64,000 nt of DNA from Strigamia acuminata. Taxonomy: Eukaryota. How positions within the stretch are numbered: the first letter of the stretch is position 1; every line of letters begins with the position of its first letter. Positions 1,940 through 57,000 of the stretch are shown in pieces. Below the pieces are notes generated by a model. That model was not told where the DNA came from. It worked only from the letters and a program-made list of their open reading frames with translations, and did no database searches. The stretch spans positions 29,636,001 through 29,700,000 of the forward strand of contig OX442314.1 in the NCBI GenBank assembly GCA_949358305.1, in the 5' to 3' direction. A program made the position numbers and the translations under genes.

Positions 1940-1990
1940 GAGATTGCTCTCTCGGATCTTTTGGGTAAACCCAAAAGGTGAAAGTCAACG

Positions 1991-9200: not shown

Positions 9201-9261
9201 CGATCGCCACTCGTCTCTTCGCCGGCCTTCCTCTCGGTCTCTTCTCTGAAGGAGTCGCCAT
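6238..9261 (-). CDS. gag: Gypsy Gag, 1007 aa (coiled-coil N-half, capsid-like region, CCHC knuckle)
   Basis: CNLCKKLGHWQKDC; retrotransposon gag-like segment W-FVKQF-KFG...LKQRKGESL-SY; lies between PBS and pol. Confidence 0.93.
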   Translation of the reverse strand: MATPSEKRPRGRPAKRRVAIDLPAVDQEVTESQELFETMDQTANCNSAQLIVNEFTQALERQQPSPPSGQLDLNNPTGSGHSKTQNDDLNLRIQSSSAEHSLNSSPVQGAAHQDSENSNMEVSHSPVRVTMMDALREQARLEGVKVTSEMTVEQIHKAMVRKQSQKDVEIVRTSLQAEFERMHAEMQQQNAELKQQRANDHVKLLQLEQEKASWLITDEEQQQRLEQLNQAQKDLEIANENLRLANANLREANTNLMTAELTAPVRAREVIPSTSRNNENYAAEQAARAKRLAQRENEVFLARQQSVIDAGQAAKSQSIAEQLLRADLAAQARENEILRADLLTVQENFAVVVQKVQDVCGKNNFAKPAPVLQKGASKSPELIDLTSAKPKVSRQSSWTDSDDSRSSRGSRNSHHSRKKRKRQPDPTEYHFPKVPQNSDRFFSNSDRLIGLLERKNKEREKPHDRGRSHDNPREGSPKRDCHNDIRDGPRYRGNPPGGDPPGGDSSDGHGGGHSRDHNSNGNRGGRGPPNGDRRPPDGDDPPDPDPPPNPNHESASDTDSSRPSVRGRSRHRTRSRTQRPDFYTKDEIDQLLRQNAQQQRKNRRDKIILQKINEFTSDKWTHQTTDEKFIRWDRVIPHAYNGNWQAGSNLLLEIFELGKVHSFGCEGALAHLVPRILVGDVKEWFRRKDFTKWDDFVKQFMFKFGESSEDIKTLWRCLKQRKGESLHSYMLRAENLLGRMPHAVTDATADDQFRAGLTEYSKNILMMSDAPDPGKFSELNEFMEVNQLRIDEKYKAYLTDAERSAYLKREKRLAEQNNETLNGLKLLQPPSYEDFLDEVEGKSSKKESSKKDVKNPHSVPKLHANITGAETPPSDAEEAEEEEEAGDETLALLAKAAALLAKNNPVAGKWKPRMKPKNVSFDASKVNTERNSKSPAVSPERRSDARSRSASLAATKKKSPATDPCNLCKKLGHWQKDCPSSKKDKPVSTAEFEKAVKIITDMFRKNL

Positions 9262-9352
9262 TTTTCAATGAGGATAAAGAAAGGATAGAGAAGAAAGATA
9301 AGCAAGATAAAAATGGCGGGTAAATTTTAACTAACAAAGTTATACAATGACT

Positions 9353-13823: not shown

Positions 13824-14016
13824 TCAGAAGTGGGGTAGAAGGATTCGATGCGACGATAAGTTAGACGAATAAAGTAGAAGACGATTGTTTTTGGCGACTG
13901 AAGCAGAATTCGAAATTCGGGTTAGCAAATAACGCGTGAACAATTCGGGAAACGAGAGAGTCGATTCGCCGAAACAAACACGTGTTACGAAGGTTAGCCG
14001 AATTACGAGAAAAGAG

Positions 14017-17000
14017 ATGGCCGGAGCAAAAGCAGTCGTAGCGAAAATCAGACGCGGAGCATTCCCAACGGAGGCCGAGTGGGACAAACTGAGAGCCAAA
14101 GACGTCCAGCCAATGTTGATAGAACGGAATATCGTGCCGCCGAGATTAAAACGAGATATGATCACCACGTTGCGACTAGCCGTGCTTACAGAGCTAGGAC
14201 TCGCGGACGAAGACGTGAATCAAGAAGAGGTAGAGGAAGACGACAAAGAAGAAGAAGAGAAAGACGAAGAGAAAGCAGAAGACAACAATCCGAAGATAGA
14301 AGAAAACGCGCCGATACAAGCGATGATAAACGGCAGATTTAGTGCGGATCAAGTGCAAAAGCTAATGCAAACGCAAATGAAGCAAATGATGGAGGCGATG
14401 CTAGCGATGCAGACGAAACCAGAGGCGCCGAAAGAGAAGAAAGAAGTTAAGAACGCGCCAAAGTTACCACGATTTTCGGGCACTCGAAGCGAGCTGCGTA
14501 CGACCACGCAATGGTTACAAGACGTCCGTGAATACGCGAAGGAATACCAATGGACGAACGTAACTACGGTGACGACGGCGGCAGCAGCGTTAGAAGGACC
14601 AGCGAAGGTGTGGCAAGACAGCGCGGGAACGACGATCCGGAACTTCGACGTATGGGCGGTTGAGCTAACAAAGAATTTTTCAGATCGACAGTTGTCGTAC
14701 GAAGACAAAGAAAGATTGATTCGAGCGCTGCAGAAAAACGACGAGACCACCGAAACCTATTTGCGACAAAAGTGGGCCACGTGCGAACGGTTGGGAATGT
14801 CGATCAACGACGCGCAGAATTACCTGTTAGACGGATTGAAGAGCAAGTCGGCAACGGCGCCGATGTACGTCGTCAAATACCAACACATTAGCGATATGGT
14901 TGGAACGGCGCAAGACTTGGAAGCGCGAGCAAAGGGGACAACGATCGAAGCTAAAACGAGGCCAAGCGTGGCGAAGCCGAACGGAAGGGGATTCGACGCA
15001 GGACCGAAGTGTTACAAGTGTGGCGAGAAGGGACATCAAAAGGCGGATAGTCCAAACGAGATGAAGTGTTTTAAGTGCCACGAGTCGGGACATTTGGCAA
15101 ACGCGTGTCCAAACGGAGTGAAATGTTTCAGTTGCAACGGTTTCGGGCATATGGCAAACACGTGTCCAGAGCCGAAGAAAGAGCGGAAGCAGCCACCGAA
15201 GGACAAGTTGGACGTTAAGACGAAGAAGATTTACAAAATCGAAGCCGAGGAGATGCAGCCAGAATTCGAGACCATGATGTGGGTCGATGGAAAGAAATGC
15301 AGCGCGGGAATCGATACGCAAAGCGCCGTGTGTCTAATTAGTAAGACGTTTTCGCAACGTACGAAGATCGAAGAGCCGGACTACGAATACGTGATCGAAG
15401 GGTTCAATCAGGACGCAAGTCGCTACCGCGGACGAACGAGGTGTGATGTAGAAAGCGCAAACGTGAAATTAACGGGTGTCGAGTTCTACGTGGTCGACGA
15501 CGCCAAAATGCCGACGGAAGTCTGGATAGGGAAACCATTCCTGAAACACCCGACGATCACGATGCAATCAGACGGAGGATACGTAACGTTCAGACCGAGG
15601 GAAGGGATGCAAGACGAATCAGGAATTTCAAGAATCCAGCCAAAAATCACTGCAGCAAAGCCGCGAGCGCTCGTGATCGACGAAAACAAAGTGGTACCAG
15701 CCCACTCGATAAGTTTGGTGACGGTGCGAGCGAAGAGTCAGTCAGACGGGTTGTTTTACGTAGAAAACGAGCACGCGGTGACAGATCGATTGGAAGTACC
15801 GGAAGGCCTGATCGAAGTGAAGAACGAGCGAGCAACGATGCCGATAATCAACAACGGGCCAGAAGAAGTCCGAATCACACGAGGACGGAAGCTTGGACAC
15901 GTCGAAATCACTGAAGAAGAGCCATCGTTACGCCAAGTACAAATCAAGAAAGTCGCAACGATCGAGGCAGGTCCGAAAACGCGAATAACGGCCGACGAGA
16001 TTAACTTGGGCAAGTCGGTGACGCCAGAAGAGAAGGAGATCGTATTGACGATGATCAACGACGAATTTCGGGACTGTTTCGCGACGAGTTTGGAGGAGGT
16101 CGGATGTTTTCCAGACCTCAAAATGGATATCGAGCTAACAACAACGAGACCAACGAATTTGCGGCGATACCAGTATTCAGCAGCGCAGCAAAAAGAGATC
16201 GACAAGATGGTCGCCGAATTGGAAGGAGCAGGATTCGTGACGCGATCAAAGAGTCCATTCAACAGTCCGATCGTGATGGTGCGCAAGAAAACCGGCGAAT
16301 GGAGAATTTGTATCGATTTCAGGTCGCTCAACGAAATAACGGTGAAGGAACACTTTCCGTGTCCCAGGATGGATGAGTTACTCGACGGGACGCACGAATG
16401 GCGAGTCTTCCTAGTGTTCGATTTGGCGTCGGGTTACTACCAGAACGAATTGACGGCCGGAGCGCAAGAGAAAACAGCATTTTCGACAATGAACGGCAAA
16501 TATCAGTTTGTGCGGATGCCGTTTGGGTGGATAAACGCGCCGTTTGTTTTCAATCGAGTAATGGAGTTGGCGTTCGGACATTTGCCATACGAAGTACTGC
16601 GCAGATATATGGACGATCTTCTATCGGGTGCGAAAACGAACGCAGAGTTAATCGAAAAGATGCGAAAGATCTTAATCGAGGTGAGAAGATCGAAGCTCAC
16701 ATTGAAGTTGAGCAAGTGCCACTTCCTCTGCGAAGAAGTACAGTTTCTCGGGCTACGACTGACGAAGGACGGCCTACAACCAGGATTCGAGAAAACAAGC
16801 GCGATCAAGAATTTTGCGAAGCCGAAAGACGTACGAGGCGTAAGGAGTTTCTTGGGGTTGTGTGGGTATTTCCGACGATTTATTGCGGGATATGCGACAA
16901 AAACAAGAGCACTAACGAAATTGACTCGAAAGAACGAAACGTTTGTGTGGACGACCGAGTGTGAAGCGGCGTTTCAGGGGTTGATTGGAGAATTGATTGC

Positions 17001-18780
17001 GGAGCCAGTGTTGAAGATCTACGATAACACACGACCATGCGAGGTGCATACGGACGCATCACAAGACAGGATTGGAGCAGTATTGATGCAGCGAGGCGAA
17101 GGAAACGATTTGCATCCGATTATCTACGCGAGTAGAACAACGACCGAATGCGAGAAACGATACCATTCGACGGAGCTCGAGTTAATGGCGGTGGTTTGGG
17201 CAGTGTTAAAGTTTCGGATGTACTTATACGGCGCAGAATTCACGGTGGTGACAGATTGCGAAGCAGTACGATACGGACTGAAGAAACGTGAGTTAACGCC
17301 ACGAATCGGGAGATGGGTATTGGCGCTTTCGGAATATAATTTCAAAGCAATACATCGACCAGGATTACTCATGGGCCACATCGACGCCCTGAGTAGGAAC
17401 GCGGAACCAGCAAGCGGCGAGGAAACGGAGATGGAACGACGGTTCAAAGTTAACCAAATTAAATTTACAGAAGGCGACTGGCTCGTGGCTGCGCAGGAAA
17501 GCGATTCCGGGTGTAAAGAGTTGAAGGACGCGTTGTTGGTAGAAGATAAAAGTTTATTGGACGAACGAATGCAGCACAAGAGTCGGGGATACAAGATCAA
17601 GAAGGGACACGTTTATTTCGAGTTATCAGCAAACGGACGGCGAAGAGATGTGTTGTATTTGCCCAAAATGATGCGGAGACAGATCACGAACGAAGTACAT
17701 ATTGGACACGCGCATCCGGGAGTCGACGCAACGATTGAGGCGATTCGGAAGAGGTTTTGGTTCCCCAGGATGCGAAGTTACGTGAAAGCAGCCGTAGGAG
17801 CGTGTATCGAGTGTTTGATGAGGAAAGAACCAGGAGGAAAACGAGCCGGCGAATTGAATATCATTGAGAGGCAAAGGGTGCCGTTCCACACGGTTCACCT
17901 GGATCATGTGGGCCCCTTTCCAAAGAGCGGCATTGGGTACCGACACATTTTGGTGGCGGTATGCAATTTTTCAAAATTGGTTTTTCTGATGCCGGTAAAA
18001 TCGACGAACGCAACGACTACGTGCAAAGAGATTCGGAAGTTATGCGCACGAATGTGGATCCCGACACGGATTATTACAGATCGAGGAACTGCGTTTACCA
18101 ACGCATTGTTTGCAGAAATGTGCAAAGAATTCGAGATTCGACACGTGCTGACTTCGACGGAAAATCCGAGAGCAAACGGGCAAGTGGAAAAAATGAACCG
18201 AACGATAGTCCCGATGTTGGCGAGCCAAACAACGAAGGACGACGGGAGCGATTGGAGCAGAGGGATTGACAAGGTCGAAATCGCGATCAACTCAAGAGTC
18301 AACCAATCGACCAAGAAAACACCATTGGAGGTGTTGTACGGGTTCCAGCCGAGAACGATCATCGAGCCAAGATTGGTAGCGATAGTAGTTGAGGAAAACG
18401 ACAAAGACGAGACGGAAATCGAAGACGTAAGAAACGAAGCGTACGAAACACTGACGGAAAACCAGATCAAGCAGAAAAAGGCGTTCGATAGACATCGAGG
18501 ACCAAACCGGACATACGAAGTCGGGGATATGGTCGTCGTACGAAGGAAAGCGATCGCAATACAAGGCAAAGCGGGAAAACTCAGTAATTTGTACCGAGGA
18601 CCATTGCGAGTAAGTCGGCGGATTTCGAGCACAGTGTACGAGATTACAAGTCTTGAGAACCCGCCTCGATACAAAACGACCGCACCAATCGACCAGATGA
18701 AGAAGTGGACATTCGAGGACGACGCGACATCAGGGGCCGAAGACGAATTAACAAGTGTCGGCGGGGACGCCGACATTTAG
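14017..18780 (+). CDS. Gag-Pol polyprotein (three zinc knuckles, PR, RT, RH, IN); first ATG 14017
   Basis: CFKCHESGHLANAC, CFSCNGFGHMANTC, degenerate CYKCGEKGHQKADS; WRICIDFR, YMDD, HTDAS, HHCC, DHVGP...ITDRG...NGQVE. Confidence 0.95.
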   Translation: MAGAKAVVAKIRRGAFPTEAEWDKLRAKDVQPMLIERNIVPPRLKRDMITTLRLAVLTELGLADEDVNQEEVEEDDKEEEEKDEEKAEDNNPKIEENAPIQAMINGRFSADQVQKLMQTQMKQMMEAMLAMQTKPEAPKEKKEVKNAPKLPRFSGTRSELRTTTQWLQDVREYAKEYQWTNVTTVTTAAAALEGPAKVWQDSAGTTIRNFDVWAVELTKNFSDRQLSYEDKERLIRALQKNDETTETYLRQKWATCERLGMSINDAQNYLLDGLKSKSATAPMYVVKYQHISDMVGTAQDLEARAKGTTIEAKTRPSVAKPNGRGFDAGPKCYKCGEKGHQKADSPNEMKCFKCHESGHLANACPNGVKCFSCNGFGHMANTCPEPKKERKQPPKDKLDVKTKKIYKIEAEEMQPEFETMMWVDGKKCSAGIDTQSAVCLISKTFSQRTKIEEPDYEYVIEGFNQDASRYRGRTRCDVESANVKLTGVEFYVVDDAKMPTEVWIGKPFLKHPTITMQSDGGYVTFRPREGMQDESGISRIQPKITAAKPRALVIDENKVVPAHSISLVTVRAKSQSDGLFYVENEHAVTDRLEVPEGLIEVKNERATMPIINNGPEEVRITRGRKLGHVEITEEEPSLRQVQIKKVATIEAGPKTRITADEINLGKSVTPEEKEIVLTMINDEFRDCFATSLEEVGCFPDLKMDIELTTTRPTNLRRYQYSAAQQKEIDKMVAELEGAGFVTRSKSPFNSPIVMVRKKTGEWRICIDFRSLNEITVKEHFPCPRMDELLDGTHEWRVFLVFDLASGYYQNELTAGAQEKTAFSTMNGKYQFVRMPFGWINAPFVFNRVMELAFGHLPYEVLRRYMDDLLSGAKTNAELIEKMRKILIEVRRSKLTLKLSKCHFLCEEVQFLGLRLTKDGLQPGFEKTSAIKNFAKPKDVRGVRSFLGLCGYFRRFIAGYATKTRALTKLTRKNETFVWTTECEAAFQGLIGELIAEPVLKIYDNTRPCEVHTDASQDRIGAVLMQRGEGNDLHPIIYASRTTTECEKRYHSTELELMAVVWAVLKFRMYLYGAEFTVVTDCEAVRYGLKKRELTPRIGRWVLALSEYNFKAIHRPGLLMGHIDALSRNAEPASGEETEMERRFKVNQIKFTEGDWLVAAQESDSGCKELKDALLVEDKSLLDERMQHKSRGYKIKKGHVYFELSANGRRRDVLYLPKMMRRQITNEVHIGHAHPGVDATIEAIRKRFWFPRMRSYVKAAVGACIECLMRKEPGGKRAGELNIIERQRVPFHTVHLDHVGPFPKSGIGYRHILVAVCNFSKLVFLMPVKSTNATTTCKEIRKLCARMWIPTRIITDRGTAFTNALFAEMCKEFEIRHVLTSTENPRANGQVEKMNRTIVPMLASQTTKDDGSDWSRGIDKVEIAINSRVNQSTKKTPLEVLYGFQPRTIIEPRLVAIVVEENDKDETEIEDVRNEAYETLTENQIKQKKAFDRHRGPNRTYEVGDMVVVRRKAIAIQGKAGKLSNLYRGPLRVSRRISSTVYEITSLENPPRYKTTAPIDQMKKWTFEDDATSGAEDELTSVGGDADI

Positions 18781-33750: not shown

Positions 33751-34264
33751 TTAAAATTCGGTATTTGGCGATTTTGGCACAATCATTGTGTTTTCCTCGC
33801 ATTCCTTACATTTTGTGCTGTCTTAAGTGCCTGTTGTTAAGTTGTTGTCATTTTTCTCAAAGATGAATCTTGGATGAGGCTCAAAATATCAAGTGTCTTC
33901 TAGTTGAGTCAAACCAATCGTTTGCAAGAGTAAAGAATTTCTTAGTACTTTCAAGAAATAAAAAAAACTAACCTGTGGCATTTTTAAACTTAGCTTCTAA
34001 AGCTCAACTTTTATCTTAATTATATTACAGCTTAGGCAATAAATGTTGTTTAACTATAGGCTTGTCCAATTAATTTAATATTTACTAGTACTTAAAAGAA
34101 AAACCAGGTGGAGGGCTTGACCTCTACTTATGGTCTAGCCCGAGACCTGACCCCCAGTCCAATTTTACTAGCCAAGTTCTCCACACGTGATTTTTCGCGT
34201 TCAAGAAAATTTTGGCTATTTTTTAGTTTTATATCGCTTTTTTGCACTTTGACTACCTTTTACG

Positions 34265-35852
34265 ATGAGCCCTACTAAAGTTAGAGGTAAGAAGACAGCA
34301 GATGACTCTTTAAGCTCCAAAAAAGCACGACCACCGCGTGGTCGCACCAACACCACTAAGCCTATCACCACCACCACGCGTGTTGAAACTCACCACGAGC
34401 CCATCGCGCCGCCTTCCTCGTCCCAATCGAGGATCCTATTAGATGGTTCCATCGTTCCCACACCATCAGATGAAACGATAGAACGCCTTGACGAATCTTT
34501 TGGAAACGATGATGTACGGGATCCGAGAGGGCCCGACTTTACCGCCTCGCAAGTCGCGAATAGTCAGGCGCCCGACTTGGGACTTTCTTCCCAGGCCATC
34601 GAGAAGCTCATCTTTATGGCTTTCTCGCAGAATCAGACAGGTGGGGCCCCTCTTCAGCGGGAGGGGTCTACCGAATTGCCAAAAATGTCTCGATCTCGTA
34701 GAGACGAGTGGGGCACATTTCAGTCTGAAAATCAAGTAAGTAATTCTCATGCGGAATTGTAGATAAAATTCTCACTCTTGTTACTGACTGGTTGTAGTCA
34801 GATGTTTCAGAGTATGATTCCGACCGTTCGTCACGCTCTAGCTCGTCAGACGATGAGCGAGAATTTTCCGCAAGACTGTCTCGTAAGGACCGTGAAATTA
34901 TACGTCTCCGACGAGAACTCGAGAAAAGGGACAAACCGCACGCCAAATCGCGAAAATCGCCGTCTCGAAAGGACGAGGAATCCGACCGATCGTCGGACGA
35001 CTCCGATGATCTCGAAGAAGATGCGCCTTTTCTCCACGAATCGTCCGCCAAGGAAATAGTTCGAATTTTGAGCAAACCAGTTTCGACGGCCAAAAATAAC
35101 AGTTTTAAGGCCGATTTTCCGTGCCCGACTCGACAGGTTCCCTTTTTGAAAAAGAAGAAAATGGACGAAGATGTGGAGGCCTATGTGGGGGCACGAAACA
35201 CGTCCTTTTCCATTCCGCGAGAACGTTTTTTGCGTCGCTTAAACGGCATGATGGCGCGCGTTGGGTCGATTACGGCAAGAATCTACGATCGTTCGTCAAC
35301 AAACGACCCCATGAACAAAGACGAATTGCTTTACGCCAACAAAGCCATTTTTCAACAAGTTCGAAATGCTATGAACGCAATTAGCGACGAACGACGTTTC
35401 AATGTCGTTCAAGGTTTGGGTACGAAGAAGTCCGACATGGTGAAGCATTTTCGAAATTCGGAGGGAGACACTCTTTTTCAAGGGCAATTTTTTGAGAGAT
35501 TCAGTAACCCATATTTTCGATACAAAAAATTTAAGAGCCTTACAACTTATTGTTTTTCCTTGCAGAAAAGCAAGCCGACCAATTCGCATCAGTGGACAGA
35601 GCGAGAAGTAAAAATCCCGCGAAGGGTCCTCGTCGCGATAATCGATTCCGCCGTGGTTTTAGTCGCCCCGTCGAGAGTTTTCAGCGCAGAGATTATTCCC
35701 ACACACGACCGGACGACAGAGATCAGAGTAGAAGCTTTCGTAACCCGGATTACAACAAAGGGCAGCAACAGCCCTTTCGTAAAAACCCCTTCCCCAGCAA
35801 CCGGGGAAGGGGTCGTGGCGGCTTCACTAGAAACGGTAACGGCTTGGTGTAG
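34265..35852 (+). CDS. gag: DIRS Gag, spliced (34265-34735, 34798-35503, 35566-35852), ~487 aa
   Basis: Introns 34736-34797 (gtaagt...tactgac...tag) and 35504-35565 (gtaacc...ttccttgcag) join three segments in frame; ends in an RG-rich tail (NRGRGRGGF). Confidence 0.78.
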
Positions 35853-37960
35853 CCACTTTTCCTTTCCTGACGCCTGTCTTTCATCTGGACGTTTACCCCT
35901 TTGTCACGACACTTGGTCCTTTATCACCTCAGATTCTTGGGTTCTTGATACGGTCAGAGGGATAAAATTGGAATTTTTAAGTCCACCTATTCAATCAGAA
36001 TTTCGTACACCAGTTTTCGATCAGATTAAACATGAACTAATCAGGGAGGAGGTTAAGGCCATGATCCTTAAAGGGGCCGCTTATTCGGTTCTTCCTTGCC
36101 AAGATCAAATAATTAGTTTTCTTTTTCTAGTTTCTAAAAAAGATGGCGGTTTTCGGCCTATTATTAATCTTAAACCCCTCAATTCCTTTTTGGTTTTCAA
36201 CCATTTCAAAATGGAGAATATTCACACCGCCTTGTCTCTGGTGGAGAAAGACGCTTTTATGTTTAAACTGGATCTATCTGATGCCTATTTTTCGGTGGCC
36301 ATACACCCAGAATCTCGAAAATTTTTGAGATTTTTCTGGGAAGGTGTTCTGTATGAACTAGGAGTGCTTCCCTTTGGTTTAGGTCCCGCTCCCTTTTACT
36401 TTACAAAATTGTGTAGAGCTGTAGCAACTTTCCTTCGATCTCTTTACGTTCGGTTAGCAGTCTATTTAGACGATTGGTTTTTTATAAATAAATCTCACGA
36501 ACTTCTTACACGACAGAGGGATTTTGTTTGCCTTCTTTTTCGCGCTCTGGGTTTTATCATTAATTTGAAAAAATCGATCCTTGAGCCCACTACTTCGATT
36601 ACCTTTTTAGGCTTTCTAATTGATTCAGTTTCTATGAGCGTCTCCTTGCCACCAGACAGAGTTCAGAATATTCTTTCCTCCCTCGAAGACTTGCTTCAAT
36701 CAGAAACCTGTTCTATACGAGAACTGTCTTCTATTATCGGCAAACTTAACGCCACAACAATTGCCATTTCCTCTGCGCCCCTACATTACCGGGGACTGCA
36801 ACATTTAAAAGCCCGTAATTTCACCGGAAATTATGAATCCACATGTTTTATAACAGAAGAAGCTAGGTCAGAGCTTTTATGGTGGAAACAAAATTTGAGA
36901 TTTTGCAAGGGCAGATCTCTTCTTCCTAAACCTTGTCTCTTATGCTTTGATTCCGATGCCTCCCTAACAGGATGGGGGGCAACTTCTTCAGGCGTTAGTA
37001 TAGGAGGCTCCTGGCCCTCTCCCCTTGTTAAGAAACATATCAATGTTCTTGAACTTTTAGCTGCATTTTGGGGTCTCAAGTCTTTTGCTAAGGATTTATC
37101 CGATAGTATAGTTAAGATTAGAATGGACAATACTGCAGCGATTGCCTCCATTAATCATCTGGGCAGCCCCAGATCCCGAGACCTTACTGCCGTAGCACAA
37201 GACCTTTGGTCTTGGGCTATGGAAAGGAATATCTCTGTTCAAGCGGAGCACATCCCGGGTCGCCTCAATATAGAAGCGGACGCGGCCTCTAGGGGTAAGA
37301 TCGTAGACTCAGGTGACTGGATGTTGAATCATAAGGTCTTTCACTCCATTGATCAAATTTGGGGTCCCTTTTATTTAGACCTTTTCGCGGCAATGCATAA
37401 TGCGCAATTAGAAAACTTCTTTAGCTGGAAGCCCGACCCTGCTGCTCAGGCCTTTGATGCCTTAGTTCAGGACTGGGGATCAGGAATTTCTTACGCTTTT
37501 CCTCCTTTTTGCCTCGTTCCAAAATGCCTTCAAAAAATCCGCAATGCTTCGACACCTACTCGAATAGTTCTGATCACCCCGATTTGGCCTAGCCAAGCTT
37601 GGTTTCCGGTAATTCCACATTCAGGAAATTTGTTCTTTTCTTTCTACTAAATCGAGATTTATTTTTCAGCTTCTCTGGTCCCTATCGACGGAATCCCCGA
37701 TACGGTTGCCCCAACTCCCGAATCTTTTGACGAATGCGCTGAAACAACCCCATCCGCTTCTCCTAGCGCGATCCCTGCAGCTGGCCGCATGGAAACTGTC
37801 ATCGGTTCCCTCGGAAACGGAGGTCTTTCAACGAACGCTTCCAAATTGGTGGGGTGTTCCTGGCAGTCCTCATCAAATAAGATCTACGACGGACACTGGA
37901 AGTCTTGGCTCCACTGGTCTACACGAAACAATGTTGACCCTGTTCGCCCATCTGCCATAA
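35068..37960 (+). CDS. pol: DIRS RT-RNase H-methyltransferase-like protein, with intron 37609-37669; probably made as a Gag fusion
   Basis: GRL...WSFITSDSWVL, KKDGGFRPIINLK, KLDLSDAYF, YLDD, DASLTGWGA, HINVLEL, DLFA, YAFPPF; removing the 61-nt intron restores WFP|LLWSL...LPQLPNLL...HP...LAAWKLS. Confidence 0.9.
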
Positions 37961-38760
37961 AGTTGGCAAATTACCTTTCTTCTCTTTTTACTGATAATTT
38001 TGCGCTTAGCACAATAAATGCCCATCGTTCGGCTATTTCTCAGACCATCAGTTTAGTTTCTTCAATTGATCTAGGTTCTCACCCACTTATCAGGCGCGTC
38101 ATGAAAGGCATCGCAAATTCGCGTCCACAAATTCCGAAATATTCCTCCATTTGGCATGTAGGCCCGGTTCTTCTCTTCCTTAAGTCACGGTTTCTTTTAC
38201 TTCCTACCTTCTCCAAGTTAGAGATTAATCGTCATATCGCCACACTCTTGGCCCTTTCCTTAGCAGGAAGGGCTTCAGATCTCAAACTCTTATCATCCAA
38301 AGTAGTTTTTTCAGCTAACTCTTGTGTTTTTCCTCTCCTAGGAAAGAGAAAATCCTCCTCTACAGTCCCTTTCGTTCTACCCCGTTTCGAGGACGAGGAA
38401 TTATGTCCGGTCGAGGCCATTAAATTTTATTTAAAACACTCAGCCGCTTTTCGCGGATCCTCTCTTCAATTCTTTTTGGCGTCCTCACGTCCTTTTGGAC
38501 CGGTCACTTCTTCCACTATTGCCAGGTGGATCAAGGAAACCTTGTCCATGGCAGGAGTAAACACTGCTATTTTTTCGGCCCATTCTACCCGTGCAGCCGC
38601 CACTTCCTTTGCTTGGTCAAAAGGAGTTAATTTATCTCACATCCTTCGAGCGGCAGATTGGTCCTCTGCCTCGATATTTTTCAAATTTTATAATCATCCA
38701 GTCGAGAGAATTTCGACTGATTTTACTTCTACTGTTTTAGAGGCTACGAAGAGCCTATAG
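37789..38760 (+). CDS. DIRS tyrosine recombinase, 323 aa
   Basis: RSAIS, GRASDL, LCPV, HSTRAAA, W...FFKFY (R-H-R-Y pattern); overlaps the MT C-terminus in another frame. Confidence 0.93.
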   Translation: METVIGSLGNGGLSTNASKLVGCSWQSSSNKIYDGHWKSWLHWSTRNNVDPVRPSAIKLANYLSSLFTDNFALSTINAHRSAISQTISLVSSIDLGSHPLIRRVMKGIANSRPQIPKYSSIWHVGPVLLFLKSRFLLLPTFSKLEINRHIATLLALSLAGRASDLKLLSSKVVFSANSCVFPLLGKRKSSSTVPFVLPRFEDEELCPVEAIKFYLKHSAAFRGSSLQFFLASSRPFGPVTSSTIARWIKETLSMAGVNTAIFSAHSTRAAATSFAWSKGVNLSHILRAADWSSASIFFKFYNHPVERISTDFTSTVLEATKSL

Positions 38761-38857
38761 TTAAACAACATTTATTGCCTAAGCTGTAATATAATTGAAT
38801 ATTTTGCTAAGTTATGACGCAAAATATGAATTATATAAAGAGGCAATAAATGTTGTT
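38752..38857 (+). repeat. Internal complementary region (ICR) of the DIRS element
   Basis: Reverse complement of the joined right end (...AAAATATTCAATT) and left end (ATATTACAGCTTAGG...). Confidence 0.93.
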
Positions 38858-39914
38858 ATTTCCCACCCTCATTTGGATTTTATGTTTTTGGTTGATAGAT
38901 ATCTTGACCACCCTAACAACATTTGTTTATGGTTTTTTATTGTATTTTCAGATCGCCAATAAAGTCGATCCGTCACCTCTCCTTGATGTTTTCAGTAAAT
39001 AAAGTTTTATTTCTGAAACTACTTGTTTTATTCCTCAGTTCCTTAAAATTGGACTGGGGGTCAGGTCTCGGGCTAGACCATAAGTAGAGGTCAAGCCCTC
39101 CACCTGGTTTTTCTTTTAAGTACTAGTAAATATTAAATTAATTGGACAAGCCTATAGTTAAACAACATTTATTGCCTCTTTATATAATTCATATTTTGCG
39201 TCATAACTTAGCAAAATATTCAATTTCAGTGCGAGTTGGTTAATAAAAGTGAAGTTACTACTTAACGTTATTTTTGTGTACTGATGGACAAACTAGACTG
39301 ATTACAGTACTCCCAAGTTTGCTTTTAACCCATTTACTGTGAATTTTAGAATTAAATTAACCTAGAGTTGCATTTATTACTGTTAAAGGACTACTAAGCA
39401 GGAGAGTTAATCATCCTACATCACTGTTAATGACATGAAAAAGCAACTTGTTCTACCACAATCACTACTAGCCTACTACATTTGGTTCTTGTAATTTGGC
39501 GCAAACACATTCAAAGTGTCTGTCTAAATGGTTTTTGTGTTTCTATAAACATCTAAAACAGATGACATACATTACAAACGTGTGTTATTACAAAGAGTCC
39601 CCTACATGCAAACATTCGAGTTACGAACTTTAAGATGGACAAACTTCAAATTTTGCAACGGCGCATAAGTTAGTTTGCATGTCTAGCACTGTATGCTAGC
39701 TGTTGTACGGTCGTGGACAAAAAAACTTTCCCTCAGTTTAGCTGTTTTAATTTTATCTACCAGGTGGCATGAAAATCCATTGAGATTCAATGACATCAAT
39801 CTTGTCCCGGTCTCTCGTCTTGCCCTAACAACAGTATTAAAAAAAATGACGACAATTAACCCTAAATTAAACCTAAACTATATGGTTAGGTTAATATTAG
39901 TGTTAGTATTAGTG

Positions 39915-40040
39915 CCGTTTTAGCTACCATCACTTTAGCGAACATGTCATTTTAGCGATTTTTGTGTCGCTAAAATGATAAGTTCGCTAAAATGGTGTGT
40001 CGCTAAAATGGAATCGCTAAAATGAAATCGCTAAAATGAA
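39915..40040. repeat. Short TCGCTAAAATG tandem/inverted repeat array
   Basis: Five direct copies at 39968-40038 preceded by inverted TTTTAGC(G/T)A copies. Confidence 0.6.
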
Positions 40041-47214: not shown

Positions 47215-50200
47215 TATAGTGTTTAAATTTCAAAGTACACCAATATATCGGTACCAAGGTTTTTCTTGTAGTGTTCTGGCAAACATTTTGCTAACATTTT
47301 GCACATGTGTCCAAAATAATCCTAAAAGGCTACAATGAACTTATTTATTGTTGTTTTTTTGTACATTTTTTACCTGGGAATAAAAATGGCACGTGTCCAT
47401 TAAAAGAACAAACGGACTGCAATCCTACTGTAATATTTTTCACTTACTGGACCAGTTACAATAGTTTCAAGTTTTTCCCATAGATGACTCTTCCAAGCGT
47501 AAGCCACTCAACGGTTCAGCTTTGGCCTTCCTTTTAACAGACGAAGCAAATCGTCTATTTGCAATCTGACTCGGTGCAACTGCATGTGGAGGCAGTGTGT
47601 TTCTTGCATTTGTCCGTGAGCTGGGGGTCTATTTAGGGCCCTTCTTTCCTTTGTGACAGAGAAGCTTTCTCGTTGACGTCATCACTAAATAAAAGCCCAT
47701 ATATGTTCGGAATGAGTCAAAAGTTAAAATGATTTTAGACATTACATTTAAATTAAATGTTAAAAGAAAAAAAAGTTTTTACGAAATTCCTTTTTAATCA
47801 GAAGTGCAATTAATGAATTGAGTTACTTTTTCTGTTAGGCATCGGCAAACTGTCTAACAACTGTAAATTAGAATAGACGTGTTCATAATTACACTTCATT
47901 GTATCTCAGCTTGTCATATGGAATCTTGGAAAGTTTAATGCTGATTGAAGACAGTTATAATTAAAATTAATTGAGTTACAAACATTAAATTTCAAAATTT
48001 TAATTAAAAAAAAATTAAAAAGTTGAAAACAAGAAAAATTAGTTGAGATTTCTTAGAAGAAGTGGAATGCCAAAGGTAAATGTTTAGGGAATAGTTAAAA
48101 GTAGACTGTGCGTAAATTCAAGCTGAAACACACAATTTGTATCGATTAATAGAATTTCTGCGAAGTACCGATTTCTGTTAAGTATTTATTTATTTTCTTT
48201 TAATCAACAACTGGGGATAAATTAAGAAGAATTTTTTTCTGAATTAATTGTTAGTTTGAGCAGTCTAATTTCATCAACGCCATCTTTTATTAAAAATCAC
48301 AAGTTGTAGGGATGTCTTTTCCTGTTGGTAATAATTTTCCCACTATCCGATGAAAATTAGTGGAATCTTTTTGCGTGAATAGAACTAGTTTTAGCTCTTA
48401 TTCAATCATTCCTTACTTAAAATTTTGCAATTAATCAATTCTATTTACTATATACATTTTGCGGTTATTCAACTGAATTCATTTATTACACATTTATTCA
48501 ATGCGCGTGTGCTTAATTATTACACTGCGCTACAAATTGATTTTGCTATTACTCAATTTAGCTGCAGGTATGTAACCCCGGCCTTAGGATTTGTGGCACC
48601 CAAATATGGGCCCTCCTAGATGTAAAATTATTTCAATTTTTTGGTCACTTGAAGCACGGGCCCTAACTCTAATACCTTGTTTGCACCAGAAAGTTTGGGC
48701 TAGCCCGAAGTTTAAATCTGGTTCTGGCATGATATTGGCTTAAAAAGTTCAGGCTAGAGCGTTCGCACCCAAAAGCAAAAAGCCCCATACCTAGGATAGC
48801 ATGTTGCCAATAGACAATCAACTTGTTACATGTTACACATGTTACAACATGTTACACACAGAGTTGTGGAAAGAATCTTAGCAGTTATCTAGTTCAGACA
48901 ATTGGATTAGGATAATCTAGTTTAAAAAATTGTTTGAAATGCAATAAGGTATTGCGGATAAAATAATTAAATCCCTGAATAACAATGCTTATTTCAAATT
49001 GAAATGTAATTTTTGTGAGAAATAAAGAAGCATGACTTTTCTACTCAAAAACTTCCTCAAGACTAAACTTTATTCTTTTCAGAACAGTGGTAATTAAAAA
49101 TACAAAGAAACAAATGACAAATACTCAGTGCTACAGGGTAAAGCGCACGGAGTAAAGATGACGCGTTCCAAGGGGGAACGCGAGATAATTGCTAACACCT
49201 TGCAAAGGTGAGTGAATTCTCAGAAAAGCAAAGGAAAAGGTTCAAGTTAAAAAGTAACAACTTCAAATTAAATTAAATACAACTTTGAAGGAATTTAAAT
49301 AAACACAGTCAAAATTAATAACATATCAGAATATCAAATTATTTCAAACAATGAACAAAATATAATAATAACATGTAAAAGCGTGTCGGTTTTCACACTG
49401 CCGGGGGCACGGGACCAGAATGAATCTCCATTTTTATTAGTCGTTGAACTGGTCGCCTAAATTTGTTGCCATTAGGCATTAACAACTCACATGAGCGCGT
49501 TACACCATCCTTGCTCGGATGTATACTGATGACACGTGCCATCTTCCAATTAACTCTTGATTTCAATAAATCTTCCACTAACACTACATCTCCTGCCTGA
49601 AGCTGACTAGTATTTGGTTTTCCCACTTGCTTTTTTAAGTCAACCAAATACTCACGGGACCATCGTTGCCAAAAGTCTATTAGAATACTTTTCCATTGGC
49701 GGATAAACAATTGCTGAGTTGGTTCGTTCGATACAGCGTCTTCAGCAGATGGCAAACTTGTCAAACTGGTCCCCGTCAAAAAATGAGCTGGCGTGAGCGC
49801 TTCGGGTTCATTTGGCGCGTCGTAGATGTAGGTAATGGGTCTTTTGTTGATGATGGCTTCTACCTGGGTAAGCAAAGTTTCAAGTTGAAAGAAGTTGAGA
49901 GAGGCTGATCCTATCGTTTTTTTTAAACAAGATTTGACAGTTTGAATCATCCTCTCCCAAAATCCTCCCCACCAAGGAGCGTTCTCAACAATAAATTTCC
50001 ACTCAACCCCTTTTTGAGTTAGGAAATTGCGTACGGAGTCGTCTCTTGTATTTTGCAGTAGAGCACACAGTTCACGGTTCGTACGATGGAACGTCGTCCC
50101 GTTGTCGCTGTAGATGGTCCTAGGCATTCCACGTCGACTGATGAAGCGTTCTAGCACGCCTACGAAATCTGAAGTGGTTAGTGACGGAATCAGTTCTAAG

Positions 50201-53200
50201 TGCACTGCTCGGATATTGGCGCAGGTGAAGAGGGCGATGTATGCCTTCGTCTTCCTTCCACGTACGATGATTGGGCCTGCGAAATCGACTCCGGTTATGG
50301 CAAATGGGCTGCATTGTGACACTCGATCAAAAGGTAGCTGTCCGGGCACCTCTCTCATCAATCGTCCATTTATTCTTTTGCAAGTCACACATTTATTTAG
50401 GATCGTTTTCAAGGTTCTCCTTGCGGCTGGCGTCCAATAATTCTGACGGAAATATGCCAGGGTGGCTGTCAAACCGCAGTGGAAAACCTGAGAATGCGAA
50501 AACGATAAAATTAATTTGGTGAGTGCGTGATCGGACGGGAGGAGCACGGGGGCGTTTGCAGTGATGGCGTCCTTGGAGTTCCTGAGTCGAGTGTCTAACT
50601 TGAGTACACCGGAAACGTCCAAAAAAGCTTTTAAGTTTTGTAGTTTTGAGTCGGTCAACGGCTTTTCGTTTTGTAATCGTGTCATCTCGGCTCCGTAACA
50701 CTCTCGCTGTGCAGCCCGGATCAGTGTCATCTCGGCTCGCTTGAGTTCGGTGACGGTTAGTGGTCCTTGGATTTTTTCTGAGGTGTCAGTAGTTCGTGTA
50801 TTGGCTGCGAATCTCAACATCCAAGCTGTAACGCGTCGTAATCGACTGAACGAGCTAAATTTAGAGAAAATAAATTCAGTGTTAATAATTTGGAGGGATT
50901 CGACGTGTGTCTTGATGTCGTCCTCATCCGATTCGTCTGCTATTTCCACCTCCGCGTTCGGCCAGTCGACAAGAGGGCCTCGCATCCATTCTGGTCCGTT
51001 CCACCACAGCTGGTCGGTCATCAATTCGTCGACCGTTAAACCGCGTGTCAAGCGGTCAGCAGGATTGTCGATGCCCGGTACGTGACGCCAATTGTCTATT
51101 TTTGACTTTTCGCGGATCTCCAGCACTCTATTCTGTATGAATGTCGGTGGCCTTTTAGCTGTGTTGCGGATCCAATGTATGCATATTTGGGAGTCAGTCC
51201 AGTAGTGTATTTCACGGCAGCTCGTCACTTCTTTAATTTGGTCGGCCATGCGGACTGCTACTAAAGCTCCCATTAGTTCCAATTTTGGCAATGTTAATGG
51301 TTTGACTGGCGCCACCCTACATTTAGAAAAAATAAAGAACGAATTGATTAAGTCTTCCGTGGTGTCTTGAATGTAGGCGACAGCACCGTACGCCTTGGGG
51401 CTTGCATCGGAAAAAATATGGATTTCGCAGTTCATTTCATTTTTCACTCCCAGCCATCTTGGAATTTGGAATTTGCTCAATTTTTGGATTTGTTCTGCCC
51501 ATTTAGTCCAGTTGATTCTAAGAGCTTCATCCAATATTTCATCCCATTCCAATTTTCTTAGCCAAAGTGATTGGAAAAATATCCTGGCGGTGACAGTGAA
51601 TGGTGTGACGAATCCGAGTGGGTCGAATATCTGGGCGGAAATTTGGACTACTTCTCTCTTCGTCACTGTTTTGCTGTTTACGCTTGAAATGTTTTCAATT
51701 TGTAAACTCAGTTTGTCCGAAGTTGGGTCCCACTTCAATCCTAGTACTTTGGATTCTTCATTTGATGTCACATTTGCATCTGTAGGATCTTTTCTTCTGA
51801 ATATTTCGCGTAGTTCAGGAGAATTAGTCTGCCATTTTACTAGTTGCATGCCAGCTGATGAGAGCATTTCGCGAGCTTGTTCGAATGTCTTCACTGCTTG
51901 GTCAATGTCGTCCACCGACGTGATCAGATCGTCCACGTATAAAAATCGACAAAGTAATTCGTACGTGGCGGGATATTTGTCTTTATAAATTTTGATGTGA
52001 CGTTTGATGGTCGCGTTTAGTAGGAAGGGGCTGGGTGCAGCGCCGAAAAGAACACGTGTTTGGCGTAGTATTCGAATTTTGGCTCGTCTCGTTCCGTCCC
52101 AGTCTGCGCAGACCCATAGAAAACGTGTCACATCTCGATCTTTGACTTCAATTTCGATCATGTGGAATGCCTTGCGAATATCCGATGTCTCGGCGATTTT
52201 TCGGAGTCTAAATTTCATCAATACAACAATTAGGGATGGCAGAAAATTAATACCTTTAGATAGGCAATCGTTTAGTGATAGCCGTCCCTTCCGATGGGCT
52301 GACGCGTCGAACACGATCCTCAGTTTTGTTGTGACTCGCTCTTCTTTTATTATTGGCCTGTGTGGCATGTAATAAATTGGGTTGGACGTGTCTCCAGTCA
52401 CTTCTTCAACGATGCCTTGTTCCAGCTGTTCCTCGATGACTTTCTTGTACTCTAGGTATAAGTTGGGTTGTCGTCGGAATTTTCTGAGCAGGTTCAAGAA
52501 GCGTTGTTCGGCAACTGCAAAGTTGTCTTCGAGCTCGTTGCTGTCGACGATCCACGGCAACGCCACCGAGTAGTTCTTTCCCGTCCATCGGATTGACTCG
52601 TCAAATTTGCGTAGAACTTCAGTTTCGTCTGTGTCCGCCATTGACTCGTGTTGGATTCCGATGGCCTCCAATTCCCAGAGTTTCCTCATGATGTCATCTG
52701 TGGATTGTACAAGGGTGATTTTATTTGTTCTCACCGTTGTTGCAAGGATGTGTGTGCCGTTGGTTGTTTGTCCATGCAGTGTCCACCCAAAGTTTGTGTT
52801 GACCGCTATTAAGTTGTCTTCGATGAATTCAGTTCTCTTGGTTGTAATTTTCCAGTAGTTGTCGACTCCTATCAACAAATCCACCTCGTCGGAATGTAGA
52901 GCTACCTGTTTGCATGTCACTTGGACTCCTTTTCTTTCCAATTTTTTGCTTAGGTATTCATTCGGGACTTCGCAGGGTGTTGACGTCACGTGTGCGATTT
53001 CTATGGCTTCGATTGTAATACGAGGCGTCTTGGCGTGCGTTGGAGTGAGAGTTAATTCCACCTTGTTGTGAACTCCTGTCGTCGGCTCGCGACCAAACAC
53101 GGATAAAGTCATTTGCTCAGTTCCTATAATTTTTAGATTCAATTTTCGCGATAATTCAGCTCTTATGAATGTCCGTTGTGCCCCGCCATCGACGTAGCAC

Positions 53201-54050
53201 ACGGCTGGTTTTGTCATTTTTTCACCAATCACGTTTACCATCGTGACCATCAAGAATTCGTATTTTCGATTGTTTTTACTCACGACGGCTGAGGCGTGTA
53301 CTTTTGACGCATTGTTGTCGATTGGGTTGACTCGTGGTTGATCGCAGATTTGAGTGTGGTGTAATCCATCGCATCGGAAGCATTTCATGGTGGTACGGCA
53401 GTCTTCAGTTTTATGAGGTGTTCTGCCTAAACATCTCATGCAGGTTCCTTGAGATTGGATTTTCTTCCTTCGCTCTTCCACCGTGAGTGGGCACGTTTTT
53501 CTGCTGTGTTCATTAGAAGAGCAAAATTGGCATTTATTCATTACCACTGAGAGTGAGTTGACGGAACTCTCCTTGGCTCCTCCTCTGCGTCGATGTGACT
53601 TTCCCTTCGAATCTCCACTTCCTTTGGCCGGGTCAGTTGGCGTGGGTGTTTTGATCGCTTTTTGTTGGTTTATCATCATTTCGTATCGATTCTCCTTTAA
53701 TAAAAATTCTCGTACCCACGACATTAATCTGATTACCGATCGTTCGCCCTCGCAGTCGTCATCATATTTGCGCATCACGGTTCTCGGAATGGCTGCGGCC
53801 AGGACGGGGAACAGCATGCGTTGGATTTCTACGAGCGGAACTTGGATATTCGACAAGTTTTCCACGTTTATTTCCACGTGTCGGTGCAGCTTTTGTAGTC
53901 CAACAATGTCTCGTTCACTGCTAATGATTGGCAAATTTAATAAGTTAGACAAAAACCTGTTTTCCAACACTGCCCGATCACAGTATTTTTTCGTCAGTCG
54001 ATTCACAGCCACGGCGTAGTTGGCGGCATTTATTTCGAGTGTTCTAATTT

Positions 54051-57000
54051 TGTTAGGGAAATTGAGCAGAGCTCCCAAACTGGGAAAGAATTCACACACG
54101 TTACATATTCAGTTGCAACCAAACGAGAACATCTGATTTAATGGTAACAATAGATTTAGGTATACAATGTACTCAACACTATACATTATTGTCTAAAGTG
54201 AATATATCTAACATAGCCGCCCATATTCATTTCCGAAAGAATCAATAAACTTATTTTACAAATCTTCTGAATAATTAATCAATCCCAACTTCCTGCAGTC
54301 TTGCTTCAATTTCGTGTCGGGTAAAGCTTTCGTCATCAGGTCGGCGTACATCTCATCTGTTGGAACAAACTCCACTTGATAGATGCCGTCCTGGATATCC
54401 TGCCTAATGAACGAGACTCGACGATTGAAATGTTTCGTCCTGCCGTGGTAACTATGATCCTTGGTCAATGCGATGGCTGGTTGGTTGTCACAGTAGATGG
54501 TAACCGGTCGTTGAGCTTCTCGTATATTCAGGTCCTCAATGAAGTTCTTTATCCATCTGACTTCTTTACCCAACTCGACCATGGCTGAAAACTCAGCCTC
54601 GCAAGTCGACATGCAGACTAACTTTAGTTTCTTCGCCTGCCAGGTGACGACTGTCCCGTTCAACATCGTAACGAAACCTGCAAAAGACTTTGCATCCACA
54701 TCACAAGAGTTCCAGGATGCATCTGTGTATCCAGTCAAATCTGCAACACTGCCCGTGTACGTCAACCGATAATTTGCCGTCCCCATCAGGTACCTCAGGA
54801 TCCTTTTTGCTGCCAACCAATGGGCTTGCTTCGGGTCGTTTAGCCACTGCGAAAGGAAAGAAACTGCAAACGCAATGTCCGGCCGCGTGCCCTGCGCCAA
54901 ATAAAGTAGGGCACCGACAAGCTCTCTATATGGCTTGTCTGCAGCTGAGGGTCCCAACGGGTAACCTGGGGCATCCAACTTCTGTGACACGTCCAACGGT
55001 GCCTTGACCGGCTTAGCCTGCAAAAGACCAAATCTAGTGATTAATTCCGAGATATATTTCGTTTGGTCCATGGTTATCTCGTTCTTCTCATCGTTTTGAC
55101 TTATTCGAATCCCTAATAGGGACTTAATCTCCCCCAAGTCAATAACCTTAATCTCCTTTCTAATTTTCTTCATCAACTGATCTAATAAACGATCATCATT
55201 GTCCAAGGTGATTAGATCGTCCACATAAGTGGCCACAAAAATTATGGATTGTCCTATGGTGTATTTATAAACACACTGTTCCGTCGGGTGCTTCGTAAAA
55301 CCCACGGCAAGCAATACTTTCTCCAACTTCTCGTGCCAAGCACGTCCCGCTTGGGGTAAACCGTATACCGCCTTCTCAAGTAAACATACTTGAGTTGTCC
55401 GATCACCAAATCCTTCAGGCAGCTCCATATAAACTGTTTCCCTCAGGCGGGCATGCAAGTATGCCGTTTCGACATCGTGGTGCTTGACTCGTAGTCGGCG
55501 TTTCGCTGCCAATGCCATCAGTATTCTCACCGTGGCTAACCGGACTACTGGGGAATAAGACTCATCGTAGTCAACCCCCTGGATGACATTAAAGCCTTGC
55601 GCGATCAATCTTGCTTTATATCGCGTTATGCGTCCTTCCTGATCGGTCTTTAATGAGTAGACCCAACGGGATCCAACTACTTTCGCATCCGGGGGTCTGT
55701 CCACGACTTTCCAAGTCTTTTGCTCACTATGTGACTTTAATTCGGCTTCCATTGCCAACTTCCACGATGCTGCTTGAGGGGAAGCCAATGCCTGCTTGTA
55801 GTTCTTAGGAACTATCACTAGACCTTGGGTCGCATCCTTCACTCGCGCGACATTCGCACCATCCGTGCCCGCTGGACGGTCACGGGTCCTACGATGTCTG
55901 CGCCAGTCTATACTCTCGTAGGGTACGGGTGGACGTCTATTCCTTTGTGGGTTTCTCCGAACTGGGCCGCATTGGGGCAAACGCGCCGCAGGGTAAATCG
56001 GGACGTCACCAATTGGATCCGGAGGAGGGGAATGGATTACAGGAACTTCCTCAGGTAAGTCTGGTATGGAGGGTGTCTCAACCCAATAATCCTCCTGATC
56101 CAAGGGTGTTGATCCAGAAATTAAAATTGAACCCAGGGCCTCTTCGTCAAATTTAACGTCACGCGAAACGAAATATTTACGTGTTATCGGGTCATAAAAA
56201 CTCCAACCAGGAGCATTGAACGGGTATCCCGTAAATATTACTCTTTTAGCTCTGGGCTCCAATTTGGAACGGTCTTGGACTGGTATCCATGTATAAGCGA
56301 GGCTTCCAAAGACTCGCATATTCGCCACATTCGGCTTACGGCCCGTCAGTCTCTCAATCGGTGTTTCCGATTCAAACCGTCTCATTTTTGATCTATTCGC
56401 TGCGTATGCTGCAGTTTCGACCGCATCCTGCCAAAAAATAGTCGGCAGCTTTGCGTCTAATAATAAAGTCCTAGCAGCGTCCAGCAACTTCCGGTTTGCG
56501 CGTTCTGCTGCGCCATTTTGGGAGGGGCTGTATGGAACGGTCAACTGGTGGTGGACACCACGGGCGGTCAACAATTCCTTGAACGCCGCATTGACGAACT
56601 CAGTACCATTATCGGATCTAAGTCGCTTTAATTTCGTCCCAAATCTCTTCTCGTGAAGTAACAAAAATTTCTCGAATTCCTCCACCGTTTGTGACTTATT
56701 CTTCAAAAAACGAGTGAAAATCACTCGGGAAAAATCGTCAACGATGGTGAAGATATACTTGTTTCCTTTCGTTGATTCGTGCCTAAATGGCCCGCATAAA
56801 TCGACGTGAAGCATCTCCAAAGGCCCCGTCGCCGTGATATAACCCGTAGACACGAAGGGAGATCGCGTTTTCTTTGCCACAATACACTTGTCGCACAACT
56901 TCGGGTCTCTCTCCATATTTAAGTTCATACCATCAACCAAATTTCGATACACCATCTCCCGGAGGGATTTAAAACCCAAATGTGCCATTCTGCGATGCCA

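Follow-up and report, generated by a model that had tools for sequence, protein, structure and literature searches.

How does a retrotransposon make both Gag and Gag-Pol when its genes are interrupted by introns and its reverse transcriptase (RT) has no start codon of its own? The question is raised by a DIRS1-like retrotransposon of Strigamia acuminata, about 5.2 kb long (34018-39226), whose genes are read on the forward strand of the window, that is, of the whole stretch of 64,000 nucleotides (nt) which was analysed (contig OX442314.1, positions 29,636,001 to 29,700,000); all coordinates below are window positions, and a frame is numbered by the remainder of the window position on division by 3. 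As retrotransposons are copied via RNA, introns in their genes should be lost, and this abundant, recently active family keeps three of them against that expectation. The original prediction was that retention or removal of the second intron acts as the switch between the two proteins. To this we tentatively prefer a frameshift of the ribosome by +1, predicted to occur where a slippery run and a hairpin lie shortly before the gag stop. The junction in question measures about 90 nt, is compact and testable, and in the passages of the DIRS literature available to us we found no explanation of how these elements make Pol without a start codon.

Gag begins at the ATG at 34265: exon 1 (34265-34735, 157 codons, frame 2) gives its N-terminus and exon 2 (34798-35503, 706 nt, frame 1) its core, after which the removal of intron 2 (35504-35565) leads into frame 0, where a tail rich in arginine and glycine (RG) occupies 35566-35852 and ends at the TAG of 35850-35852. 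With introns 1 and 2 removed we obtained, as predicted, a Gag of 487 amino acids (aa) with the tail ...NRGRGRGGFTRNGNGLV. The pol exon (35853-37608), which Pfam matches assign to RT, RNase H and the first part of a Dam-like methyltransferase, is read in frame 1; its conserved RT part begins at the motif GRL (35887), 35 nt after the end of the Gag tail. The only ATGs of this frame near the junction are those at 35437 and 36061, and the claim that RT is without its own start was therefore correct. The RT frame overlaps the end of the open reading frame (ORF) of the tail, and passing from frame 0 to frame 1 is what a +1 frameshift would do.

Inside this overlap lies a run CCCTTTC (35772-35778), whose function is predicted. 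In the tail frame it is read CCC TTT C, a register in which both tRNAs may re-pair one base forward, from frame 0 of the tail to frame 1 of RT. Written as C CCT TTC it has the form X XXY YYZ, and it is followed, after a spacer of 6 nt, by a hairpin of 11 bp (35785-35813) whose arms ACCCCTTCCCC and GGGGAAGGGGT are separated by the loop AGCAACC. This hairpin folds at -23.1 kcal/mol, with a z-score between -3.55 and -3.88; none of 200 shuffles folds as well, P is 0.0013 when it is compared with 3000 synonymous resamples, and no other window of 45 nt in the element is as stable. Directly after it comes another predicted stem at 35815-35856 (GUGGC...GCCAC, containing CACUAG/CUUGGUG), and the gag stop lies within it.

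The same stretch stands out by its conservation. Two public contig sets (X1 and X2), which behave as DNA, contain the family at a very high summed depth and in several diverged subfamilies; among runs recorded as RNA, none was found to contain it. Their summed depth peaks at 35760-35840, and a contig of another family aligns only at 35766-35850, with its gag stop at the same place. We take 35766-35850 as the most conserved block of the junction and as the predicted dual-coding overlap. Of the variants, which were read by hand, the one at 35844 changes no amino acid in either frame, and the few that lie beyond 35840 are silent in frame 1.

Relatives of the element have comparable geometries. 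An earlier scan of metagenome contigs with a single protein had given no match; with a profile, 80 related loci were found, 66 of which have at least 900 nt upstream of RT. In 28 of these 66 the gag ends near the RT start and RT is in the -1 frame, 5 have it in the +1 frame, gag and RT are fused in 9, and 24 loci are of unclear type. In the +1 loci the gag ORF is uninterrupted and has 302 to 475 codons (the one with 475 codons carries the motif PPFRGRGRGY), and their RT frame is open for 143 to 251 nt upstream of the gag stop. This means that the junction geometry of the window element occurs without any intron. Among the 28 loci of the -1 type, nine (L015, L027, L034, L052, L053, L057, L023, L062 and L064) carry, where gag and RT overlap, a canonical heptamer which is in register with gag (TTTAAAC, AAAAAAC, TTTTTTA or GGGTTTT); in two of the nine, L015 and L027, it is followed at a distance of 6-7 nt by a strong stem (z -3.6 and -2.8). 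Judged from these sequences, this suggests that recoding in overlapping frames may be common in the DIRS1-like group. The passages of the DIRS literature which we could consult contain no mention of gag-pol frameshifting, and "frameshift" refers there to damaged copies.

It is for the stability of the cassette, the register of its frames, the conserved block and the geometry of the relatives that we lean towards the frameshift. On this reading, most ribosomes on the spliced mRNA would end Gag at 35850-35852, and a minority, aided by the 11 bp hairpin 6 nt downstream, would slip by +1 at CCC UUU C and go on with VKTPSPATGEGVV...SHFSFP...GRL into RT, RNase H and methyltransferase, the product being Gag-Pol. 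The only truly dual-coding stretch would be 35779-35852. Intron 2 would probably be spliced out of necessity, giving Gag its conserved arginine/glycine-rich tail, and the template for copying would have to be unspliced RNA.

Several observations weigh against this reading. Taken as a -1 signal, the heptamer leads from the RT frame to the tail frame, and only a +1 slip connects gag with pol; for two tRNAs to slip forward together under the influence of a hairpin downstream is unusual. Upstream of the gag stop there is none of the eukaryotic +1 motifs of the Ty1, Ty3, EST3 and antizyme types, the only in-frame candidates being the CCC-T quadruplets at 35772 and 35787. The +1 relatives do not have a comparable hairpin: in the four of the five that were examined, the best folds of 45 nt reach -9.5 to -18.6 kcal/mol. 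A slip at 35772 leaves the RG box out of Gag-Pol, and the fused relatives keep it. In subfamily B, a sister which is about 89% identical, the contig totals compared with the listed sites reveal two unlisted differences within 35769-35797. Lastly, in the subfamily of the window three relations modulo 3 fit splicing routes, which is more than expected if none of these routes is used.

The loss of the RG box would be avoided by a +1 shift, or another recoding event, at the gag stop itself (GUG UAG C, 35847-35853), which would keep the whole tail with its RG box in Gag-Pol. The likeness of the tail to the relatives does extend to the last residues before the RT start, the other family has its stop at the same place and a +1 peptide EFFSFP where the window has SHFSFP (translated by hand), and the second predicted stem encloses this stop. 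We consider such a shift very unlikely all the same: the tRNA for Val could not re-pair, no +1 motif of these types is present at the stop, the RNA downstream of it is unstructured (z +1.32), and the strong upstream hairpin is left unexplained together with the conserved block from 35766 onwards.

The same conserved block could instead be accounted for by an additional splicing event in the tail, either the removal of an intron of 58 nt (35740-35797, GTAACC ... TTACAAC ... CCCCAG) or the joining of the intron 2 donor to the acceptor at 35797, since with either of them the ribosome would enter the RT frame shortly before the RG box, and 35798-35852 would be dual-coding. Removing 35740-35797 yields a Gag-Pol of 1150 aa; intron 2 has the same donor heptamer (GTAACCC) and the same putative branch heptamer (TTACAAC), and the acceptor at 35797, which has 70% pyrimidines upstream, reaches the RT frame from the donor at 35504. 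Against this, the donor is changed to GTACCC (35743 A>C, together with 35738 T>C) in subfamily B and in one more contig, the segment has a GC content of 0.52, unlike the three introns, its pyrimidine tract is tied up in the hairpin as part of the 5' arm, and its local alignment with intron 2 does not exceed chance (P 0.25). An additional intron of this kind thus appears scarcely probable. We also rejected the idea of intron 2 as a duplicate of the tail, on account of this same non-significant alignment, as well as an intron of 97 nt (35836-35932) in frame with RT, which would delete the conserved motif GRL..W..D.WVL (hand reading).

We next ask whether the introns are real and which frame is read after intron 2. 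The three GT..AG segments measure 62, 62 and 61 nt, with GC contents of 0.35, 0.31 and 0.28, and the exons have GC contents of 0.43 to 0.54; around intron 2 the flanks are at 0.48 and 0.54. Intron 1 (34736-34797, GTAAGT..TGTAG) is inferred from the sequence: it contains an in-frame TAG, and its removal connects the frame of exon 1 with that of exon 2. The listed subfamily variants of exon 1 (34612 and 34630) are both synonymous in frame 2, and in exon 2 the variants 34929, 35472 and 35481 are synonymous in frame 1. Over intron 1 and the end of exon 1 (34713-34780) the contigs of diverged subfamilies cannot be aligned, their joints skipping 54 and 66 nt, which suggests that intron 1 evolves fast too.

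Intron 3 (37609-37669, GTAATT..TTTCAG) is followed by exon 4 (37670-37960, frame 2, stop at 37958-37960), which encodes the C-terminal part of the methyltransferase region. Its spliced product aligns without gaps over the junction AWFP|LLWSL in all six relatives tested. Hence, intron 3 is real, and its removal restores a conserved protein region.

Intron 2 (GTAACC..TTGCAG) had to be judged by variation within the family, as a homologue of gag is lacking. The depth of subfamily B is 432 (X1) and 183 (X2), against 2483 and 992 for the main form, or about one sixth in both sets. We rebuilt its contig from lists of variants, and 30 of 30 bases agree with the end of an independent contig; as these lists hold the best-supported differences of the two contig sets, our counts concern listed sites. 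Intron 2 of subfamily B has a length of 72 nt, with 9 listed substitutions and seven insertions which add 10 bases. Its splice sites are nevertheless kept (donor GTAATC, acceptor TTTTAG), and the parts of the flanking exons that are covered contain no insertion or deletion. The contig of a third subfamily was not used, since its alignment skips 35507-35745. From the preservation of the splice sites in spite of many interior changes we conclude that intron 2 is a genuine short intron in gag.

Copies without introns were not seen among 699 DNA contigs (426 and 273 in the two sets), and none of the six listed joints falls at an intron boundary. As the family keeps its introns, the element must separate the unspliced RNA which serves as template from its spliced mRNAs, as retroviruses do.

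The variation in the tail tells which frame is constrained. Among the 25 listed variant sites of 35568-35768, 16 are synonymous and 9 non-synonymous in frame 0, the 16 being third positions of that frame; two of the 25 sites (35759 and 35762) belong to other contigs by their depth, and subfamily B alone gives 14 synonymous and 9 non-synonymous sites. Read in frame 1, the frame into which a retained intron would lead, the same 25 sites are synonymous 4 times and non-synonymous 21 times. The tail frame is thus under purifying selection, and the read-through frame upstream of about 35770 shows no sign of coding constraint. This lends no support to the view that 35566-35852 is dual-coding throughout.

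Homology points in the same direction. The tail aligns to residues 342-372 of the tick element P0004, directly before its RT start and GRI motif (E 0.005), and its last 40 residues are similar to the stretch of equal length which precedes GRL in 73 relatives, with a top score of 54 where shuffles reach 36.4 +/- 4.5 (P 0.003). Several relatives consist of a single ORF running from gag through the tail into RT, with the RG box in frame. Three frame 1 peptides have no likeness to the region upstream of GRL in the 73 relatives (P 0.21-0.78). Selection on the tail and its likeness to the relatives show that the splicing of intron 2 gives the ancestral, selected Gag. One frame 1 peptide, GVVAASLETV, looked similar to a motif of the type GVLALNLSLV which some relatives have upstream of RT, and we rejected it as not significant when compared with shuffles.

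We can now return to the retention of intron 2. In the original prediction an mRNA which keeps this intron and loses introns 1 and 3 would be translated without a break, first the gag core, then the intron and 96 codons that shadow the tail, and finally RT, the efficiency of splicing setting the ratio of Gag to Gag-Pol. The underlying facts were reproduced: the intron measures 62 nt (3n+2), it has no stop in the upstream gag frame (remainder 1), and with only introns 1 and 3 removed a continuous frame of 1190 aa runs through RT, RNase H and methyltransferase. The same holds for the main contig of the family (3n+2, stop-free, 1190 aa), which differs from the window only at 35538 (C>T), a change that is synonymous in the read-through frame by hand reading. 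Retention is moreover the usual type of alternative splicing for introns this short, and the arrangement exceeds chance, mildly. A stop-free intron interior is obtained in 26.7% of 20,000 shuffles which preserve composition, and 56% of the synonymous resamples of the tail leave the +1 frame open, as do 34% of its codon shuffles, because a tail rich in RG, P, N and Q has few codons able to create +1 stops; the probability of the whole coincidence, including the 1-in-3 match of frame between the gag core and RT, is about 0.03-0.05.

As a conserved switch, however, retention is not supported. The intron of subfamily B, at 72 nt, is a multiple of three, so that a ribosome which reads through it remains in the frame of the tail and does not arrive at RT; as rebuilt, it also contains a putative in-frame TGA, in a part beyond the contig end used for checking, the length of 72 nt being firm. 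The arrangement is therefore not kept in this sister subfamily. Elsewhere in the element, contigs of diverged subfamilies have 24 synonymous and 13 non-synonymous changes at 37 listed sites covered by a single frame, so that these lineages do not look dead; the contigs may be those of subfamily B, and B may be autonomous.

Even if restricted to the dominant subfamily, retention meets further objections. The read-through frame has the 4 to 21 ratio given above and no likeness to the relatives, Gag-Pol would lose the conserved tail which the fused relatives keep, and the ribosome would meet a signal of canonical -1 appearance throwing it back into the tail frame. The donor GTAACC, which had been called weak, is no weaker than the GTAATT of intron 3, an intron that is necessarily spliced, and intronless relatives share the same +1 arrangement from gag to RT. 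What stands of the earlier view is that intron 2 is real, that Gag acquires its RG-rich tail by splicing and that RT has no ATG. The intron being stop-free and of a length other than 3n is probably incidental, and we regard retention in the dominant subfamily as unlikely.

A precedent for retention comes from BARE1 of barley (Ty1/copia), in which about half of the capped transcripts have lost an intron of 104 nt by splicing, and this leads to a frameshift and a stop after gag, according to the passages available of PMC3735527. For BARE1, Drosophila copia and Arabidopsis EVD, splicing to a Gag-only mRNA is described as established in the parts we could consult of PMC3735527 and PMC5580714. If retention is right, the logic is identical to that proven for BARE1, as far as these passages describe it: a short intron of a length other than 3n at the end of gag, whose removal shifts the reading into a nearby stop, the unspliced form giving Gag-Pol. 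The differences are that the window element belongs to another order of retrotransposons, that its spliced form gains a conserved tail of 95 residues where BARE1, in the same passages, gains three, and that the arrangement is absent from the sister subfamily. Should splicing set the ratio of Gag to Pol, the strategy of copia and BARE would extend to a third, unrelated order of retrotransposons.

Splicing could also produce Pol in a way which does not depend on the interior of intron 2, and this way is compatible with the 72 nt of subfamily B. If the donor of intron 1 is joined to the acceptor of intron 2, exon 2 is skipped and exon 1 is fused in frame to RT, RNase H and methyltransferase. Exons 1, 3 and 4 then encode 934 aa through the methyltransferase, which would explain an RT without an ATG, and in subfamily B no stop interrupts frame 1 between 35569 and 35770. 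By the same scheme, and equally in accord with subfamily B, the skipping of exon 3 fuses the gag core to the tyrosine recombinase (exons 1, 2 and 4, 755 aa ending with the recombinase), so that Gag, Pol and possibly the recombinase would all start from the ATG at 34265. We find the skipping of exon 2 rather doubtful. Its frame relation is obtained by chance once in three, and over the tail 34-56% of resampled sequences leave the +1 frame open; the product would contain a linker of 107 residues without coding constraint; relatives which have no introns and the same +1 geometry could not use this route; the recombinase has its own ATG at 37789; and the conserved hairpin block would be left without a role.

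The splicing routes can be combined into one scheme with a single start codon, in which all four exons give Gag, the skipping of exon 2 or, in the dominant subfamily, the retention of intron 2 gives Pol, and the skipping of exon 3 gives a fusion of Gag and recombinase. Such combinatorial splicing is conceivable, and in our opinion doubtful. If it were true, splicing by the host, and not recoding by the ribosome, would set the ratios of structural to enzymatic proteins in an animal retrotransposon with a tyrosine recombinase.

The predicted frameshift, which remains our preferred reading, can be set beside gag-pol frameshifting in retroviruses and long terminal repeat (LTR) retrotransposons, in which -1 shifts use a heptamer, a spacer and a stem, and +1 shifts are of the Ty1, Ty3 or antizyme types. 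As in those systems, pol of the window element is without a start codon, and its frame, different from that of gag, is already open before gag ends; the window has a homopolymeric slippery run, 6 nt and a stable stem, and related DIRS loci have textbook -1 cassettes at this junction. Unlike them, the window element needs a +1 shift by a forward slip of both tRNAs, and has none of the +1 motifs of these types before the stop.

The retention of introns in genomic copies has a parallel in Penelope-like elements, which a passage of bioRxiv 10.1101/2021.04.23.441226 calls highly unusual among retroelements in this respect. Both keep introns through amplification. The Penelope-like elements belong to an unrelated RT clade with another mechanism of integration, and the introns of the window element are inside the coding sequence, so that their removal is needed for translation. 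The word "intron" is absent from the main text of the survey of DIRS1-like elements by Piednoel et al. 2011 (PMC3266345), and a search of the full texts of the literature brought up none that deals with introns or splicing in DIRS elements.

The element itself is well delimited, as the contigs of many copies diverge before 34018 and after 39226. Its left inverted terminal repeat (34034-34167, 134 nt) is 100% complementary to the right one (39044-39177). An internal complementary region (38752-38857) forms two pairs, one with each end: 38752-38796 is complementary to 34018-34062 (45 nt, 100%) and 38768-38857 to 39161-39250 (90 nt, 88%). Inverted terminal repeats with an internal region matching both ends are characteristic of DIRS1-like elements. 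Pfam gives RVT_1 (1.7e-15) and Dam (2.8e-09) in pol, in agreement with the expected RT, RNase H and Dam-like methyltransferase, and Phage_integrase (1e-06, above the curated cut-off) in the ORF 37651-38757, which designates a tyrosine recombinase and not a DDE integrase. The recombinase ORF (37789-38760 from its first ATG, frame 1) overlaps the end of pol. From its opening at 37651 to 38760 it shares the genomic frame of RT, the sole separator being the TAA at 37648-37650 inside intron 3.

The unspliced frame 1 is open from 34798 to 37650 (950 codons). A protein search with pol yielded 4657 matches at E<=1e-30, and homology to 53,376 proteins begins near residue 362 of the ORF. The nearest proteins are XP_064482803.1 of the soft tick Ornithodoros turicata and T1J8R7 of the centipede Strigamia maritima; the best identity of RT to any protein found is 47% (58% over one partial protein). 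In pol, the changes at 35856 and 35865 leave the frame 1 protein unaltered (codon positions by hand reading). For the gag core no homologue was found in the database searches, nor in the 80 related loci (tblastn, phmmer). The first ORF is a candidate gag, with which its position and its basic RG tail agree, and this tail aligns with the gag end of the tick element.

The element thus shares with DIRS1-like elements (PMC3266345) its terminal and internal repeats, its length of about 5.2 kb, its high copy number and the order of its genes, in which a putative gag is followed by RT, RNase H and Dam-like methyltransferase and these by the ORF of a tyrosine recombinase, which begins before pol has ended. 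It differs from them by introns of 61-62 nt of the spliceosomal type which are kept genomically, two in gag and one in pol, by the modest identity of its RT and by a gag core without a detectable homologue. It is a complete, young DIRS1-like retrotransposon of an abundant and recently active family.

Finally we must note some features of its surroundings. The window contains no other copy of the element, and Rfam gives no match in 34000-39300. The window is a nest of seemingly intact retrotransposons (1-9264, 13933-18780 and 49393-58485), with two pol ORFs of the Ty3/gypsy type (1422 and 1615 codons), an ORF of 1008 codons with a zinc knuckle, a BEL/Pao element (1571 codons) and a Ty1/copia element (1409 codons). 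Beyond the end of the DIRS1-like element, at a distance of about 740 nt, there are five copies of the motif CGCTAAAATG (39968-40038), spaced by 14-17 nt.

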